Shown here piece by piece: positions 4,476-34,825 of a stretch of DNA of 64,000 nt (the stretch's first letter is position 1; each line of letters opens with the position of its first letter). The position numbers and the translations under genes were made by a program. The notes beneath the pieces are model-generated. The model ran no database searches, was not told where the DNA came from, and worked only from the letters and a program-made list of their open reading frames with translations. This DNA comes from Lactobacillales bacterium (GTDB taxonomy: Bacteria; Bacillota_I; Bacilli_A; RF39; UBA660), in assembly GCA_015059545.1 (NCBI GenBank), contig SVAG01000006.1:723-64722 (forward strand), written 5' to 3'.

Positions 4476-5209
4476 TGCGTTATTTAATGACTTTTTCATA
4501 TGATGGTACTAATTATAATGGTTATCAAAAACAACCAAATAAAAATACAGTACAAGATCAAATAGAAGGTGCTTTATTAAAAATATTTAGTAAAGAAATA
4601 TCTATTCATGCATCTGGAAGAACAGATGCTAAAGTACATGCATTAAATCAAAAAGCTCACTTCGATTTAGAAAAAGAAATAGATTTATATAAATTAAAAA
4701 AATCAATTAATAGTTTAATAAATGATGATATTTATATAAAAGAAATAGAAAAAGTAAATGATGACTTTCATGCAAGATTTAATGTTGTAGAAAAAACATA
4801 TATTTATAAACTAAATGTAGGTAGTTATGATCCTATTAATAGGAATTATATATATCAGTATAATAAAGAACTTGATATAGAATCTATTAAGAAAGCAATT
4901 AAATATTTAATAGGTACACATAATTTTAAATCATTTACTAAAACAGATATTGAAAAAGATGATTATATTAGAACTATATATAGTATAGATTTATTAAAAG
5001 AAGATAATTTATTAACTTTTACATTTAAAGGAAATGGCTTTTTAAGATATATGGTTAGAAATATTGTTGGTACTTTAATACAAGTTGGAGAAAATAAATT
5101 AAAATCTGATGATATTTTACATATAATTGAAAGTGAAGATAGAAAAGAAGCAGGAAAAACTGCTAATCCAGAAGGATTATATTTAAAAGATGTAAAATAT
5201 AATAATTAA
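4475..5209 (+). CDS. truA: tRNA pseudouridine(38-40) synthase TruA
   Basis: MRY..FSYDGTNYNGYQKQPN N-terminus, a GRTDAKVHA catalytic-Asp motif, and a position between ecfT and rplM. Confidence 0.85.
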   Translation: MRYLMTFSYDGTNYNGYQKQPNKNTVQDQIEGALLKIFSKEISIHASGRTDAKVHALNQKAHFDLEKEIDLYKLKKSINSLINDDIYIKEIEKVNDDFHARFNVVEKTYIYKLNVGSYDPINRNYIYQYNKELDIESIKKAIKYLIGTHNFKSFTKTDIEKDDYIRTIYSIDLLKEDNLLTFTFKGNGFLRYMVRNIVGTLIQVGENKLKSDDILHIIESEDRKEAGKTANPEGLYLKDVKYNN

Positions 5210-29086: not shown

Positions 29087-29635
29087 ATGATAATTAGACA
29101 TAAAGATTTAGTAAATAAGGGATATAGTGCTTATCAAATAAAGAAAATGGTTAATGATAAAAAGTTATATTTTGTAAAAAAAGGTGTATATTCTACTGAT
29201 GAAAATGTAAATTATTTTGAAGTAATCGCTAAAAAACATCCTAATGCAATATATACTTTAGAAACAGCTTGTTATATATATAAATTAAAAAAAGATATGC
29301 CTAAATTATATTATGTAGCAAGCAAACAAAAAGATAGAAAAATGAAAGAAGAATATATAAAACAAATTTTTATGACAGATAGCTTATATACTATAGGTGT
29401 TAATAATATGACATATATGGGTGTTAATATTAAAGCATATGATTTAGAAAGAACTTTAATAGAAGTTGTAAGAAATAAAACAAATATAGAAAATGATTCT
29501 TATAGGGAAATAATAGAATCTTATAGTAAAATATCAAAGCTTTTAAATAAAAGAAAATTAGAAGAATATTTACCTAATTTTAAAGATCCAAAAATCATTG
29601 AAAGAATAAATCACGAAGTTTTTAAAACACAATAA
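29087..29635 (+). CDS. Hypothetical protein with an AbiEi-antitoxin-like N-terminal domain
   Basis: MIIRHKDLVNKGYSAYQIKKMVNDKKLYFVKKGVYS resembles the AbiEi_4 N-terminal domain. No AbiEii partner is adjacent. Confidence 0.35.
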   Translation: MIIRHKDLVNKGYSAYQIKKMVNDKKLYFVKKGVYSTDENVNYFEVIAKKHPNAIYTLETACYIYKLKKDMPKLYYVASKQKDRKMKEEYIKQIFMTDSLYTIGVNNMTYMGVNIKAYDLERTLIEVVRNKTNIENDSYREIIESYSKISKLLNKRKLEEYLPNFKDPKIIERINHEVFKTQ

Positions 29636-29650
29636 TATTGTGTTTTTTAT
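29623..29650 (+). terminator. Rho-independent terminator
   Basis: aaacacaat-aata-ttgtgttt hairpin followed by a T-run. Confidence 0.7.
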
Positions 29651-29728
29651 TGTAATAAATTCCAAAATATGGTAATATTGATACTGTATTAACGTAAAGC
29701 AAATAGTAAAGGGAGCAAGTGAAATAGT

Positions 29729-30448
29729 ATGATTAAATTCGTAGTTTATGATGACGAAGAAGTATTTAGAAGTAATATTGTAAGTTGTATAAATAAAGTT
29801 ATAGATAATAATAAAATTGATTATAAGATTGAGGAGTTTTCTAAGTATAATAGTAGAATGCAAAAGGTTATCGATGAAGATTGTCCTAAAATTTATATTT
29901 TAGATATTGAAATACCAAATGGATTATCTGGTATTGATGTTGCTAGAAAAATTAGGGTAGATGATTGGAATAGTATAATTATTTTAGTTACATCTCATGT
30001 AGATATGGGTTACGATGCTTTGAAAGCACAAATTATGTTATTGGACTTCATATCAAAATATAATGATTGTAATAGAAATATTGAAAAAACAGTCAAGAAA
30101 GCATTATTGAAAATTGATAATAAGAAAGTTTTAATATTTGAATCTAATGATATTACTTATAAAGTATATACTGATGATATAGTTTATATTGTAAAAGATA
30201 CAATTGATAGAAAATGTATTATTAAGACAGTTTATAATGAGATTAGTATTAATGAAAATATTAGTACTTTATTTGATATGCTTGATAATAGATTTTTTAT
30301 GACACATAGAAGTTGTATAGTAAATACTGAAAAGATTGATAGAATTGATTGGAGAAATAATATAGTTTATTTTAAGAATGGATTCAATACAGATTATTTA
30401 TCAAGAGATAGAAAGAAGGAGTTTAAGGCGTATGTTAGAGGTTGTTAG
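29729..30448 (+). CDS. LytTR-family response regulator, AgrA-like
   Basis: REC domain (MIKFVVYDDEE...DIEIPNGLSGID) and a C-terminal LytTR DNA-binding domain. 239 aa. Confidence 0.8.
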   Translation: MIKFVVYDDEEVFRSNIVSCINKVIDNNKIDYKIEEFSKYNSRMQKVIDEDCPKIYILDIEIPNGLSGIDVARKIRVDDWNSIIILVTSHVDMGYDALKAQIMLLDFISKYNDCNRNIEKTVKKALLKIDNKKVLIFESNDITYKVYTDDIVYIVKDTIDRKCIIKTVYNEISINENISTLFDMLDNRFFMTHRSCIVNTEKIDRIDWRNNIVYFKNGFNTDYLSRDRKKEFKAYVRGC

Positions 30449-31736
30449 TTCGTTTATAATTTATTTTATTACACATTTATTAGATTGTAGTGTATTTTCT
30501 AAATTAATTGGTACAAAATTTAAAATAGATATTAAATTTATAGTATTGATTTCTATTTTTTCTTTTTTAAATATATATGCAGGATTGCAATATGGGAGCC
30601 TTGTTAAATTAATTATAACAAATTTGATAACATTTATATTATTTTTACTCATATATAAACAAACGATGTATAAAACTTTGATAGGAACAATATTTACATT
30701 TATAGGTGTGGTATTGTCAGAATCATTTTTTTCTGTTATTGCATTTGAAATTTTTAATATTAATACAATCAGTTTTATGAATAGTTTGTTTGGATTGATT
30801 GTAATTAATTTTTCAATATTTATTATATATCTACTAATATTTAAAATTAAATTTGTTGTAAGTTTTATTTCAAAAATAATGAAGTGGTATGAAGAAAGTA
30901 AACTGCTAAATTTAATTAGTTTATTTATAATTGTTATATCAATATGTTATGTTATTGGATATAAAATAATTTTTGACATATTTGCTTTGAATATTACTTT
31001 TTTACTTTTTAATATATTAGTTGGCATAATTATATTTATAGGAGGATATTTTAAAGAAAAATCTAGTAATAATAAATTAACAATTGAGTATGATCAATTG
31101 CTTGATTATGTAAAAACATATGAAGAAGAAGTAGTTGATAAGAGTAAAAAACAACATGAATATAAAAATCAACTTATAATTATAGATGATATGATTCCAA
31201 AAACGAATAGGAAAGCAAAGGATTATTTAAAGAAAGTATTAAATAATGTTGAAGATATCACTGATAATGATTGGCTAGTGAAATTAAAAAATTTACCATC
31301 AGGTGGTATAAAGGGGTTAGTTCATTTTAAAATAAAAAAAATGATAGAAAATAAAATATCTGTTTATATAGATGTTGATAAGAAGTTATCTAAAAAAGAT
31401 AATTGGGTTAATGTCGATAAAAATTTAGAAGATGTAAGTAGAATATTGGGTGTTTATTTGGATAATGCTATAGAAGCTGCATCAAAAGCTAAAGATAAAC
31501 AAATAATAATTGAATTTATAAATGGAGAAGATAGTATAGAGTTTGTTTTATCGAATAGTTATAGTGGAAATATAAGTTTTGCTGAATTAGATAAGGAAGG
31601 ATATTCAACCAAAGGAAAAAATCGTGGTGTAGGATTATCGCTAGTTAAAGATATTATTAAAAACAATAAATTATTAGAACAATCAAGGGAAATAAATGGT
31701 AAATTTTATGTTCAAAAATTATATATAAAAAAATAA
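30432..31736 (+). CDS. GHKL-type sensor histidine kinase, AgrC-like, with a 6-7 TM sensor
   Basis: Polytopic N-terminus and a C-terminal HATPase (..GVGLSLVKDII..). Overlaps the RR stop by 17 nt. AAGGAG RBS. The ORF-track start at 30378 is an extension. Confidence 0.75.
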   Translation: MLEVVSSFIIYFITHLLDCSVFSKLIGTKFKIDIKFIVLISIFSFLNIYAGLQYGSLVKLIITNLITFILFLLIYKQTMYKTLIGTIFTFIGVVLSESFFSVIAFEIFNINTISFMNSLFGLIVINFSIFIIYLLIFKIKFVVSFISKIMKWYEESKLLNLISLFIIVISICYVIGYKIIFDIFALNITFLLFNILVGIIIFIGGYFKEKSSNNKLTIEYDQLLDYVKTYEEEVVDKSKKQHEYKNQLIIIDDMIPKTNRKAKDYLKKVLNNVEDITDNDWLVKLKNLPSGGIKGLVHFKIKKMIENKISVYIDVDKKLSKKDNWVNVDKNLEDVSRILGVYLDNAIEAASKAKDKQIIIEFINGEDSIEFVLSNSYSGNISFAELDKEGYSTKGKNRGVGLSLVKDIIKNNKLLEQSREINGKFYVQKLYIKK

Positions 31737-31770
31737 GATTTAAATTAATAAATCTTATTTTTATTTTTAT
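31726..31770. terminator. Bidirectional terminator between the convergent HK and agrD genes
   Basis: aagattta-aattaa-taaatctt hairpin flanked by an A-run upstream and a T-run downstream. Confidence 0.6.
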
Positions 31771-31889
31771 TTTTCAATCATACTTTTTGGCATTTCTGGT
31801 TCATCTAAAATAAATCTTGGTGAACAAACATTTGTCATGCTTAAACTTCCAATAGTTTTAAATAATTTTGAAAAAAAACTTCTGAACAT
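31767..31889 (-). CDS. agrD: AgrD-like autoinducing-peptide precursor (40 aa); not in the supplied ORF track
   Basis: Minus-strand ORF MFRSFFSKLFKTIGSLSMTNVCSPRFILDEPEMPKSMIEK with a GGAGGA RBS 7 nt upstream. It has an amphipathic leader, a single Cys core, and a C-terminal DEPEMPKSM that matches the DEVEVPKEL / EEPKSL AgrD recognition tail. It lies immediately downstream of agrB. Confidence 0.7.
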   Translation of the reverse strand: MFRSFFSKLFKTIGSLSMTNVCSPRFILDEPEMPKSMIEK

Positions 31890-31934: not shown

Positions 31935-32543
31935 TTAATTCATATTTAATAAGTAAGTTTTATAATTATCGTAACTCAAATGAAATATTTTATAAGTAAT
32001 AGGGAGAATAAGGAATATTTCAATCCATATTGAGAAAATAATTATATTTGAAATTATATCGTCTTTAATTATTAAAGATAAAATTGTAAGAATTATGCAA
32101 CTTATTGTTGATATTATTTTGTATTTTTTTCTTCTTTGTTCTTTTATAATTGGTGCTTTTTTAGTATCCGCAGGTGCATACTTAAATATTAATAATGTAC
32201 CAATTATTCCTAAAATAAATTTAATTATAAAAGGAATAATTATTATTTTTGTTAAAAAAGGTATTCCTAAAAATACAATTGAAGATGATAATAGACATAT
32301 CCAACTTTTAGTAGCATGCAATCCATGGGCTGATTCTCTTAATATATTAAAGAAGAATAAAAGTATTATCATTTCTCTAAATACACCTAATATAATAGAC
32401 ATTGGAATTATAAATAACATTTTAGTAAAAGTTAAATAAAATCCTTCTAGACTATATCTATATTCATCTATTTTAATATCATCTGTTTCAGGATATTGCT
32501 CTTTTATTAATCTAGTAGCAAAATTTAAAAATCTTTTTTTCAT
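31935..32543 (-). CDS. agrB: AgrB-family AgrD-processing membrane peptidase
   Basis: RESAHGLHATKSWICLLSS carries the conserved catalytic His and Cys spacing of AgrB. 4-6 TM. 202 aa. Confidence 0.8.
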   Translation of the reverse strand: MKKRFLNFATRLIKEQYPETDDIKIDEYRYSLEGFYLTFTKMLFIIPMSIILGVFREMIILLFFFNILRESAHGLHATKSWICLLSSSIVFLGIPFLTKIIIIPFIIKFILGIIGTLLIFKYAPADTKKAPIIKEQRRKKYKIISTISCIILTILSLIIKDDIISNIIIFSIWIEIFLILPITYKIFHLSYDNYKTYLLNMN

Positions 32544-32867
32544 ATAATCACCAACTACTATAAAAATTTTATCACTTAAAAATTAGATTTCAATCAGTAT
32601 TGCAAGTTATGTTTTTAAAGCAGTTTTAAATGTAATTTTGATTTAATTTTTGTTAAAAAAATACAATTCATGTTTCTAAAATGACGTTTTGCACAAAACT
32701 AATTGATTATGAAGAAATATCTTGGTATCATAAACTCGTTCGCTAAAAATAATGCCTTAAATGCAGCTGCGAAATTTGTCGGAATTTAGGGTTTTGTTTT
32801 TCTTGAAACAATAGCAGTAGAAGATGTATATTTAATATGTAAACAGAAATAAGAAGGAGGCATTATT

Positions 32868-33080
32868 GTGAGAGGAAAAGTGAAATGGTTCAATAATGAA
32901 AAAGGATATGGATTTATTGAATATAATGATCATGAAGATATCTTTGTTCATTATTCAGCTATATTAACTGAAGGTTATAAAACTTTAGTTGAAGGACAAT
33001 ACGTTGACTTTGAACTTGTGAGAACTGACAAGGGATTACAAGCTAAAAATGTTATCGAAGTAAAAACTGCTTTAGTATAG
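32868..33080 (+). CDS. csp: Cold-shock protein (CspA family)
   Basis: [18 protein letters not shown]..., containing the RNP1 motif. 70 aa. GGAGG RBS. Confidence 0.92.
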
Positions 33081-33142
33081 TAGTTTTTTTGTTTATTTTA
33101 TTTTTTTTTTATGATATAATCAATTAAAGAGAGGATGATGTT

Positions 33143-33670
33143 ATGAGATACAATATTCGTGGAAGTAAAATGGAAGTTACAGATTCAATTAGAAATTATA
33201 TTGAAGAAAAATTAGGTAAACTTGATAAATACTTCGAAAATCCAGATGAAATAACAGCAAGTGTGTTAGTTAGAGAAAGTGGAATAAACGATAAGGTTGA
33301 AGTTACAATTCCAATTAAAACTACAATTTTAAGAGCAGAAGTTTCAACAAAAGATTTATATGAAGCAATAGATTTAGTTGTTGAAAAATTAGAAAGACAA
33401 ATAAGAAAAAATAAGACAAGAATGAATAAAATAAATAAAGAATCAATAGTTGCATTTATTGATTTTGAAATTACAGAAGAAGAAAAGAAAGAAGAAGCTG
33501 TTGTAAAAAGAAAAACAGTTGAAATGAAACCAATGAGTGAAGAAGAAGCAATTCTTCAAATGAATTTAATAGGGCATGATTTCTTTATATTTAAAAATTC
33601 AGCGACTGATGAAGTTTCTGTATTATATAGAAGAAATGATGAACAATATGGAATAATTGATGTAAAATAG
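33143..33670 (+). CDS. hpf: Ribosome hibernation-promoting factor, long form (YvyD/HPF)
   Basis: M.YNIRG..MEVTDSIRNYIEEKLGKL N-terminal domain and a C-terminal dimerisation domain. 175 aa. Confidence 0.85.
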   Translation: MRYNIRGSKMEVTDSIRNYIEEKLGKLDKYFENPDEITASVLVRESGINDKVEVTIPIKTTILRAEVSTKDLYEAIDLVVEKLERQIRKNKTRMNKINKESIVAFIDFEITEEEKKEEAVVKRKTVEMKPMSEEEAILQMNLIGHDFFIFKNSATDEVSVLYRRNDEQYGIIDVK

Positions 33671-33792: not shown

Positions 33793-33869
33793 GCGCTCGT
33801 AGCTCAGCTGGATAGAGTGTTTGGCTACGAACCAAAAGGTCAGGGGTTCGAATCCCTTCGAGCGCACCA
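33793..33869 (+). tRNA. tRNA-Arg (anticodon ACG)
   Basis: GCGCTCG/CGAGCGC acceptor, CTACGAA anticodon loop, TTCGAAT T-loop, CCA encoded. 77 nt. Confidence 0.9.
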
Positions 33870-33874
33870 TATTT

Positions 33875-33951
33875 CGGGAAATGGCTCAACTTGGTAGAGC
33901 ACTTGGTTTGGGACCAAGGGGTTGCAGGTTCAAATCCTGTTTTCCCGACCA
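33875..33951 (+). tRNA. tRNA-Pro (anticodon UGG)
   Basis: CGGGAAA/TTTCCCG acceptor, TTTGGGA anticodon loop, TTCAAAT T-loop, CCA encoded. 77 nt. Confidence 0.9.
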
Positions 33952-34081: not shown

Positions 34082-34825
34082 TTATATAATAATTTCATCA
34101 TATAATTGTAATAAATCTTCTTCTTTAATATCAAAACCAGTTCCATGGTCATATGTTTTTCCTTTTTTCTTTCCTTTTTTATAGACACTTACTTTGAAAG
34201 TAACCCTTATTTTACCTTGATCTAAAAGATTTATAAATTCATTAAAAGTTTTAAGTTTATAAAATTTTATTTTTGTATATTTAAAATAGATCCCATCTTT
34301 ACTATATTTTTTTATAGCATGAATATATGCTAGATATTCTAATTTTCTATACAATTTTTCTTCTAATGTTTGAAAATCCCAATATACATCTTTTTCTAGT
34401 AAATTATTTTTTGTATCATATATATGCAAAAATATTTTTTTATCTTTTTTGTTAATTTTTAATTCAAAGTAAAATCTATTGCCAATTTTTGTTTTTTCAT
34501 TACAAAAAACAGAATTGTTTAATACTTTATATTTTGGAAAATTCCTGTCAGGATATCCATATGTATCTTTAATTCTTTCAGTTTCTTTGTAATACAATCC
34601 TTCTGGTTTACAATTAAATAATGTAGTAAAAATATTTTTTTTACTTGTTTTAGTTTTGATTTCAATTCCATTATAATCAGGTATTTCTAAATTGTTTTCA
34701 TTATTTCCTAGTAGTGTTTCAAAAGTTCTTCCCACACTACTGTTTCCATCAATAATACTTTTTATCCATCCTTTCATTTTAATGTCTATAAATTTTTGAT
34801 TTAAATCTATAATGTTTTTTAACAT
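34082..34825 (-). CDS. MvaI/BcnI-family (MutH-like) type II restriction endonuclease homologue
   Basis: SSVGRTFETLLG..NNLEIPDYNGIEIKT matches the G..E..G..NN...D..G.E(I/L)K catalytic signature of MvaI/BcnI/MutH. 247 aa. Confidence 0.5.
   Translation of the reverse strand: MLKNIIDLNQKFIDIKMKGWIKSIIDGNSSVGRTFETLLGNNENNLEIPDYNGIEIKTKTSKKNIFTTLFNCKPEGLYYKETERIKDTYGYPDRNFPKYKVLNNSVFCNEKTKIGNRFYFELKINKKDKKIFLHIYDTKNNLLEKDVYWDFQTLEEKLYRKLEYLAYIHAIKKYSKDGIYFKYTKIKFYKLKTFNEFINLLDQGKIRVTFKVSVYKKGKKKGKTYDHGTGFDIKEEDLLQLYDEIII

Follow-up and report, generated by a model that had tools for sequence, protein, structure and literature searches.

In Staphylococcus aureus, agr is a single agrBDCA operon transcribed from the P2 promoter, with RNAIII transcribed divergently from P3. 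Clostridial agr systems have no RNAIII, and their agrBD and agrCA genes form separate operons (PMC12312760). Their autoinducing peptides (AIPs) have rings of more than five residues, with six-residue rings known from Clostridium acetobutylicum and Ruminiclostridium cellulolyticum (Rc-AIP1, CWFWSY) (PMC8251862; PMC12312760). Among Bacilli other than staphylococci, lamBDCA of Lactiplantibacillus plantarum and agrBDCA of Listeria monocytogenes also lack RNAIII, and both are single co-directional operons with five-residue rings (CVGIW and CFMFV, respectively). In the fsrABDC system of Enterococcus faecalis, which is likewise of the AgrB/AgrD type, FsrD is translated from the end of fsrB. Its signal GBAP is a nine-residue lactone closed through Ser (PMC12312760). 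Herein, we analysed a stretch of 64,000 nt (the window) from a Lactobacillales bacterium (GenBank assembly GCA_015059545.1, contig SVAG01000006.1, positions 723 to 64,722, forward strand) that carries an agr-like locus. The locus consists of two convergent units, agrB with agrD and a LytTR regulator with an AgrC-like kinase, and all four genes carry the signatures of their families. Judged from sequence, the locus is likely a functional agr-type peptide quorum-sensing module of an uncultured gut bacterium, with a G+C content of 24% in the window and with members of RF39 among its relatives.

The four proteins belong to the same families as those of S. aureus. AgrB has the R/G/H/C motif in the same register, with H76/C83 in place of H77/C84, and AgrD shares the amphipathic leader, the single Cys and the D-E-x3-P-K-x-L/M tail. 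The kinase has about six to seven hydrophobic segments within residues 1–205, matched PF14501 (HATPase_c_5) with E=4.8e-14, and carries the H-box QHEYKN, which fits the pattern H-[DE]-Y-x-N. Its H-box His is H242, and that of S. aureus AgrC is H239. However, the layout differs from that of S. aureus: there are two convergent operons instead of one, the regulator precedes the kinase, a separate promoter free of boxes serves these two genes, and the position of RNAIII is taken by csp, a gene for a cold-shock-domain protein. An Rfam search of the window and the locus returned three tRNAs and one sub-threshold chance match, with no RNAIII-like or other known RNA. With the clostridial systems the locus has in common the separate operons, the lack of RNAIII and, as predicted, a ring larger than five residues, the last also being a likeness to GBAP. 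The clostridial rings are of at most six residues, whereas seven are predicted here, and their hosts form spores, whereas the window comes from an RF39-like bacterium of the Bacilli with a small genome. The L. plantarum and L. monocytogenes systems differ from it in their co-directional operons and smaller rings, and fsrABDC in its Ser lactone, gene order and box sequence.

When compared with the NCBIfam equivalog models, AgrB scored 114.9 bits against NF002210 (cut-off 282), indicating a member of the AgrB family and not an orthologue of the model's set. The kinase had its top match in staphylococcal AgrC (NF046015, 92.2 bits, cut-off 500) and the regulator in quorum_RR_AgrA (NF046049, 54.7 bits, cut-off 400). 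The system is agr-like and belongs to the AgrB, AgrD, HPK10 and LytTR families; by these thresholds it is not orthologous to the staphylococcal proteins. The low scores of the kinase and the regulator, together with a host known from metagenomes only, count against a functional module of this type. The initial annotation had assigned 29729–31736 to a LytTR regulator and a GHKL kinase. Both identities stood, but the kinase start was corrected from that of the longest open reading frame (ORF), 30378, to 30432, which public gene callers use and which leaves a 17-nt overlap with the regulator.

In the mechanism that we propose, the amphipathic leader would carry AgrD to the membrane. There AgrB (H76/C83) would cut between L28 and D29, releasing the 12-residue tail DEPEMPKSMIEK, and would move the L28 carbonyl onto the C22 thiol to form the seven-residue macrocycle CSPRFIL, while most relatives would form six-residue rings. 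Some further protease would take off the leader. If the product kept no exocyclic tail, the thiolactone would rearrange to a lactam, as clostridial AIPs, which lack such a tail, do (PMC8251862). The kinase would then detect the peptide through its fast-evolving, multi-pass sensor and phosphorylate the regulator. The regulator would bind 12-nt boxes (ACAtTTCAgrCA) with a 21-nt repeat, arranged as two back-to-back pairs between agrB and csp, each pair ending 7 nt from a −35 element and about 30 nt from an extended −10 element. Pair B, degenerate here, would provide feedback on agrBD; the better-conserved pair A would drive csp and perhaps hpf. The regulator-kinase operon would be transcribed from its own sigma-70-type promoter without boxes. 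The coordinates of these features are collected in Table 1.

Table 1. Features of the agr-like locus, in coordinates of the window; minus-strand parts are given in reading direction
Feature	Position	Strand	Basis or remark
Regulator-kinase operon promoter, TTGTAA, 17 nt, TGgTAATAT	29650–29678	+	sigma-70-type
AgrA-like response regulator, REC + LytTR, 239 aa	29729–30448	+	Response_reg and LytTR domains
AgrC-like (HPK10-type) histidine kinase, 434 aa	30432–31736	+	HATPase_c_5, H-box, C-terminal GHKL domain
AT-rich 14-bp hairpin	31729–31762	both	candidate bidirectional terminator; repeat search and folding
agrD, 40-aa autoinducing-peptide precursor	31767–31889	−	translation and profile matches
agrD leader, residues 1–21	31889–31827	−	
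agrD core C22–L28, CSPRFIL	31826–31806	−	
agrD acidic tail D29–K40, DEPEMPKSMIEK	31805–31770	−	
agrD stop codon	31769–31767	−	
GGAGGA ribosome-binding site	31902–31897	−	7 nt 5′ of the agrD ATG; direct sequence reading
agrB, membrane cysteine peptidase/cyclase, 202 aa, H76/C83 dyad	31935–32543	−	PF04647, E=1.8e-35
Predicted agrBD promoter, −35 TTGAAA (32593–32588), 16-nt spacer, extended −10 TGaTAAAAT (32574–32566)	32566–32593	−	
LytTR box pair B, degenerate, ACATTTAAAACT (32633–32622) and ACATAACTTGCA (32612–32601)	32601–32633	−	21-nt period; towards agrB
LytTR box pair A, ACAATTCATGTT (32663–32674) and ACGTTTTGCACA (32684–32695)	32663–32695	+	21-nt period; canonical strand towards csp
Candidate csp promoter, −35 TTGATT (32703–32708), 17-nt spacer, extended −10 TGgTATCAT (32723–32731)	32703–32731	+	
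csp, cold-shock-domain protein, 70 aa	32868–33080	+	PF00313, E=2e-26; divergent from agrB

The agrD gene and its conservation in related loci

The minus-strand ORF from 31889 to 31767 translated into MFRSFFSKLFKTIGSLSMTNVCSPRFILDEPEMPKSMIEK, exactly as first read, with C22 as its only Cys. The peptide scored 24.9 bits against Pfam AgrD (PF05931, curated cut-off 22.7) and 23.3 bits against NCBIfam TIGR04223 (cyclic lactone autoinducer peptide, cut-off 19), which confirmed it as an AgrD precursor. A gap of 45 nt separates the ORF from agrB, which precedes it on this strand, and the GGAGGA ribosome-binding site noticed before was found in place. The hydrophobic moment (muH) of leader residues 1–16 was 0.55, within the top 2% of shuffles, and that of the S. 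aureus AgrD-I leader was 0.51. In a six-frame regular-expression scan of the 64 kb, this ORF was the sole site with an AgrD-like core plus tail; AgrB, the kinase and the regulator likewise had no paralogues within the window.

For AgrB, the motif RESAHGLHATKSWIC begins at residue 69, and the catalytic His and Cys are 7 residues apart, with Arg and Gly upstream. Alignment revealed that R69, G74, H76 and C83 were invariant in 80 of 80 homologues, so the AgrB homologue with conserved His and Cys that had been noted upstream of agrD was upheld. R69 and H76/C83 correspond to R70 and the invariant catalytic H77/C84 of S. aureus AgrB (PMC10482373). When the Protein Data Bank was searched with the AgrB sequence, only chance matches to a phosphate transporter were returned (E of at least 0.3), so there was no solved relative for comparison. 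GenBank labels AgrB a ‘hypothetical protein’ (MBE6160347.1) despite its Pfam match, and the 40-aa neighbour is named correctly.

The initial annotation had described agrD as missing from the ORF track; in public records the gene is present. Exact look-up of the 40-aa sequence retrieved MBE6160346.1, ‘MAG: cyclic lactone autoinducer peptide [Lactobacillales bacterium]’ (MAG, metagenome-assembled genome), and the gene is also called by the JGI and ENA pipelines on contigs from several samples. The identical peptide occurs on 17–23 independent contigs, 17 being the count from the exact look-up. A full-text literature search with AgrD tail strings gave no matches. The agrD gene is thus already annotated in public records, and the locus is a genuine yet ordinary further member of the agr family, already annotated by machine.

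To survey related loci, one genome per GTDB species was scanned for AgrB, which yielded 80 loci (L001–L080). All 80 came from gut, rumen or faecal MAGs labelled as uncultured Bacilli, Tenericutes, Erysipelotrichaceae and similar groups; for one of them (L031) the genome is closed, with a size of 1.26 Mb. Among the source organisms are Candidatus Coprosoma and Candidatus Faecisoma, placed in the GTDB order RF39, family CAG-822, by Gilroy et al. (PMC8035907). The scan of public genomes thus recovered this agr family from uncultured gut MAGs only, RF39 being the assigned order of some. In the literature searched, no paper linked RF39 with AgrB, and a search that combined RF39 with agr terms gave no mention of RF39 among the top matches.

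When an ATG start was required, an AgrD-like ORF of 37–47 aa was found after agrB in 72 loci; two further loci have other agrD start codons, and one is frameshifted. Five of the 80 loci run off the contig end and were left out of the count. AgrD is therefore encoded after agrB in 75 of 75 loci with enough sequence, 74 of them intact. Absence of the ORF beside agrB in related genomes had been named in advance as grounds for rejecting the gene; as AgrD follows agrB in every related locus with enough sequence, the gene is real. In the frameshifted copy (L011, about 4572–4760), the leader and the Cys are in one frame and WWDEEETPKSLIK in another, indicating a pseudogene or an assembly error.

The relatives have a common leader and a near-invariant tail, DEPE[CM]PKSLIK, the codons of which show synonymous differences among close relatives. 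In contrast to leader and tail, the segment that runs from the Cys up to the tail is hypervariable: the 77 peptides have 74 distinct cores, so the family would offer a large untapped pool of candidate gut signals and cross-inhibitors. A second conserved Cys lies within the discarded tail (DEPECPKSLIK) in most relatives (L003, L005, L010 and L018–L080), and the window clade has Met at this position (DEPEMPKSMIEK).

The domains of the regulator and the kinase were found as expected, both genes converge on agrD, and this arrangement of agrBD against kinase and regulator is kept in 62 of the 63 loci in which it could be evaluated. The proposed split of the operon into two halves thus holds beyond the window. 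When the kinase was compared with that of L001, the sensor part was 44% identical, and identity in the kinase part was 71–81%. Such fast sensor divergence is as expected for a signal and a receptor that diversify together, a pattern known from the staphylococcal agr groups.

Predicted AgrB cut site and ring size

For the position of the AgrB cut, the window peptide and its relatives were aligned by MAFFT with seven reference AgrDs verified by exact look-up (S. aureus I, II and III, S. epidermidis, L. monocytogenes, C. perfringens and L. plantarum LamD). The AgrD sequences tried for C. difficile and C. acetobutylicum were not matched by exact look-up and were left out. P34 was invariant and E30 nearly invariant. 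The window residues D29-E30-P-E-M-P34-K-S-M37 fell in the columns of S. aureus D33-E34-V-E-V-P38-K-E-L41, with M37 (Leu in most relatives) in the L41 column. The staphylococcal, listerial and clostridial tails share this register, as does that of LamD, and the C. perfringens tail HQPEEPKSL is of the same x-E-P-x-x-P-K-S-L type as that of the window, so the tail match to the AgrB-recognition motif, proposed from the letters alone, was borne out. The column just before the tail motif is presumably that of the last AIP residue in all seven references, in line with the five-residue rule (PMC12312760). In S. aureus AgrD-I, the AIP is documented to end with M32, and processing by AgrB cannot do without E34 and L41 (PMC10482373).

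Given this homology of the tail with the reference AgrDs, the AgrB cut is expected between L28 and D29. From this point the tail has E at +2, P at +6 and L or a similar residue at +9. The cut would give the seven-residue ring CSPRFIL, so the larger ring that the initial annotation had suggested is the prediction favoured by homology. The calculated [M+H]+ for CSPRFIL is 817.4389, or 916.5073, 1030.5502 or 1131.5979 with V, NV or TNV tails; for rings of six and five residues it is 704.3548 and 591.2708, respectively. Counted back from the last predicted ring residue, the Cys is 4 positions away in the references, S. aureus included, 5 in 70 of the 77 family peptides, and 6 in the window and five others; the family norm would accordingly be a ring of six residues. 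Several points speak against a ring of seven. By the classic rule an AIP ring has five residues (PMC12312760), with the Cys 4 residues before the last one, while C22 is 6 residues before L28. No report of a seven-residue AgrD-derived ring was found in the literature searched. In addition, tail homology is the whole basis of the prediction of ring size.

A canonical ring of five residues would result if AgrB cut between F26 and I27, giving cyclo(CSPRF) and leaving I27-L28 as a hydrophobic linker in the discarded tail before DEPE. The staphylococcal AIPs, which are the best studied, have five-residue rings (PMC12312760), and the Listeria AIPs are pentameric (PMC11297923). Moreover, the distance from Cys to DEPE varies in the family (x5 in 70 peptides, x6 in 6), which a variable linker explains equally well. 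However, the column before x-E/Q-x3-P coincides with the presumed last AIP residue in 7 of 7 references. The E (+2) and L (+9) essential in S. aureus map to E30 and M37 only when the cut is at L28|D29 (PMC10482373). Just before the D, the residues match the remaining core in variability and hydrophobicity, which fits ring residues but discriminates weakly. Taken together, the five-residue ring is unlikely, though a real contender.

A second possibility is that Ser23 acts as the nucleophile, which would close SPRFIL into a lactone of six residues, the usual size in the family, with Cys22 free and exocyclic. In an ungapped codon alignment, TGT-TCA (C22-S23) of the window stands opposite GCA-TGT (Ala-Cys) of L002 and L004, so that Ser23 falls in the Cys column of the nearest relatives at equal total length, and the peptide P0031 is likewise of 40 aa with its Cys at position 23. 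One relative (L030) carries Ser instead of Cys, and lactone AIPs formed through Ser are known from S. pseudintermedius and as GBAP (PMC12312760). Against this, a thiol is the better nucleophile on an acyl-enzyme thioester, and the other four peptides with the x6 distance (L015, L018, L043 and L070) have no Ser at the second core position, which indicates that ring or linker length varies in the family independently of this Ser. We regard the Ser23 lactone as improbable and retain the C22 thiolactone of seven residues as the preferred product.

In the AgrD of L030 (4605–4727), Ser replaces the ring Cys (GSEASLVVIFDEEETPKSLIK) and is the sole candidate nucleophile, which predicts a lactone variant within the same AgrD family.

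LytTR boxes and promoters between agrB and csp

LytTR regulators are expected to have imperfect direct repeats of about 9 bp as their sites; published descriptions have such repeats 12–13 bp apart and directly 5′ of the −35 element (PMC5600425; PMC4227749). When the window was scanned with the consensus GAAWTGT-N14-GAAWTGT, 6 matches were found against 6.0 expected, which is chance, so the evidence for LytTR boxes is comparative. The orthologous promoters, 79 in all, were searched for 12-mers of 3 or more G/C that recurred with 10 or more of 12 positions alike, and loci were counted by offset. The histogram peaked at 21 nt with 10 loci, compared with 0–3 loci at the other offsets from 13 to 40. 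In 62 of 75 loci, the best pair by a position weight matrix (PWM) scored above the 95th percentile of shuffles, and its spacing was exactly 21 nt in 58 of these 62.

The pairs formed two clusters of position and orientation, while 0.085 pairs were expected per shuffled region. Pair A ends 100–140 nt from the agrB ATG in about 55–59 loci. Pair B, found in about 25 of 75 loci, has the opposite orientation and ends 50–70 nt from that ATG; both pairs were present in 19 loci. On the strand that looks like the AgrA box ACAGTTAAG (ACAtTTCAgrCA), pair A is directed towards csp and pair B towards agrB. Pair-anchored alignments revealed an extended −10 element, TGnTAnAAT, about 30 nt after the proximal unit and at a fixed distance for both pairs. 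In the window, 7 nt separate the end of pair A from the csp −35 element, and likewise pair B from the agrBD −35 element; the promoter elements on both sides are conserved among relatives. The combination of a box pair and an extended −10 element at the right distance occurred once in the window (pair A), compared with 0.0 times in Markov shuffles.

The orientation of the S. aureus boxes was read from the agr regions of metagenomic S. aureus contigs. The pair ACAGTTAAG-N12-ACAGTTAGG reads towards agrB and is the P2 pair, not that of P3. The other pair, written CTTAACTAG...CTTAACTGT on this strand, faces hld/RNAIII, and the two pairs stand back to back. In layout the window resembles P2/P3, since its two candidate pairs of direct repeats (21-nt period) also stand back to back and each faces a divergent promoter of its own, and we infer that the agr system is wired to the neighbouring csp gene, which would be a direct target of the LytTR regulator.

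The gene order hpf – csp <> agrB-agrD >< kinase-regulator is conserved (32868–33670 for the csp side of the window; L001–L080): in 79 of 80 loci the divergent neighbour of agrB is csp, with hpf/raiA next to csp on its far side in 61 of 80. No terminator-like hairpin was found between csp and hpf; hpf has its own extended −10 element, and a strong hairpin lies 3′ of it. Perhaps hpf is co-regulated with csp.

The following points weigh against this wiring. The PWM was trained on the same promoters that it scored. In the window, pair A scored 11.9, barely over the shuffle threshold of 11.0, and pair B scored 0.5, with little kept beyond its ACA...GCA flanks, compared with 25.8 at that place in L001. 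The window-alone consensus scan was, as stated, at chance level. Finally, the csp and agrBD promoters have near-consensus −35 elements, extended −10 elements and optimal spacers of 16–17 nt and may fire without an activator, whereas S. aureus P2 and P3 have suboptimal spacers (PMC4227749). Of the LytTR repeats that had been anticipated upstream of agrB (32544–32860), pair A is the one that scores well within 32544–32867, if marginally, but its position and orientation fit csp and not agrB; the pair on the agrB side is degenerate in the window and clear in relatives.

Alternatively, pair A might activate agrBD through a distal promoter with a leader of about 85 nt, and csp would merely be a syntenic neighbour. 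Towards agrB, 5 nt from pair A, there is a promoter-like TTAACA (32656–32651), followed after 16 nt by TACATT (32634–32629). One would expect the circuit to include autoinduction of agrBD, and pair B is nearly unrecognisable in the window. However, relatives have the first unit of pair B where the TACATT block stands (ACATTTCATGCA in L001), pair A is oriented by the S. aureus rule for csp only, and no conserved −10 element follows pair A on the agrB side, whereas one follows on the csp side at a fixed distance in 53 loci. The distal TTAACA/TACATT promoter was dropped on these grounds, and control of agrBD by pair A seems quite doubtful to us. That the module is decaying or silent in this lineage, its genes intact but autoinduction lost through the degenerate pair B and the peptide constitutive or absent, is the least probable alternative, very improbable in our view: the drop of pair B from 25.8 in L001 to 0.5 and an agrBD promoter good enough in its −35 and extended −10 elements to suggest independence from an activator would fit it, but the four ORFs are intact with their catalytic residues, the exact peptide recurs on the 17–23 independent contigs, and L002, L004 and L008 also have a weak pair B and yet retain the whole locus.

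With pair A assigned to csp, the box pair on the csp promoter suggests an RNA chaperone, and possibly ribosome hibernation, as the output of agr. A wider reading is possible but tentative, and we hold it to be less probable than its negation: in a clade of uncultured, AT-rich gut Bacilli that includes RF39, agr would be a vertically inherited core locus whose best-conserved direct output is csp (possibly with hpf) and not agrBD, csp standing in RNAIII's place; the clade would signal with six-residue macrocycles, and the window peptide would be the first seven-residue AgrD-derived thiolactone or lactam. Two predictions lift the locus slightly above routine: this ring of seven residues, against six for the other members of the clade, and the box pair that occurs order-wide at the csp promoter.

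The convergent junction and neighbouring genes

The stop codons of the kinase and agrD are separated by 30 nt that lie inside the hairpin at 31729–31762. Folding gave −11 kcal/mol, with z=−4.0 on the plus strand and −2.5 on the minus strand, and there are U-runs on both strands, which is in agreement with the shared bidirectional terminator proposed before. But a scan for the G+C-rich terminator consensus, in which G-C pairs are needed, did not pick up this AT-rich hairpin; the terminator is a candidate.

The promoter of the regulator-kinase operon directly abuts the hairpin that ends the upstream gene, leaving no space for LytTR boxes. Just 3′ of this promoter lies an element of the form GTTAAC-N5-6-GCAAA(C/T) (TTAACGTAAAGCAAA in the window, 29689–29703), which is kept amid diverged surroundings in L001, L002, L004, L007, L008, L013 and L016 and could be an operator or a leader element. 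The upstream gene is an ORF of 182 aa (29087–29635) with only weak similarity to AbiEi_3_N and DUF3173 and with its own hairpin terminator (29624–29646, −7.4 kcal/mol). It was considered as a fifth agr component and ruled out: it occurs in just 10 of the 80 loci, the closest ones, which places it outside the conserved agr module.

On the other side, a gene for an MvaI/BcnI-type restriction endonuclease (34082–34825, minus strand) lies beside tRNA-Arg and tRNA-Pro (33793–33951). In a conspecific contig (L082), genes with LRR_5, Inhibitor_I42 and HTH_26 domains are found at the endonuclease position instead. The segment 33793–34825 looks like a strain-variable islet next to tRNAs.

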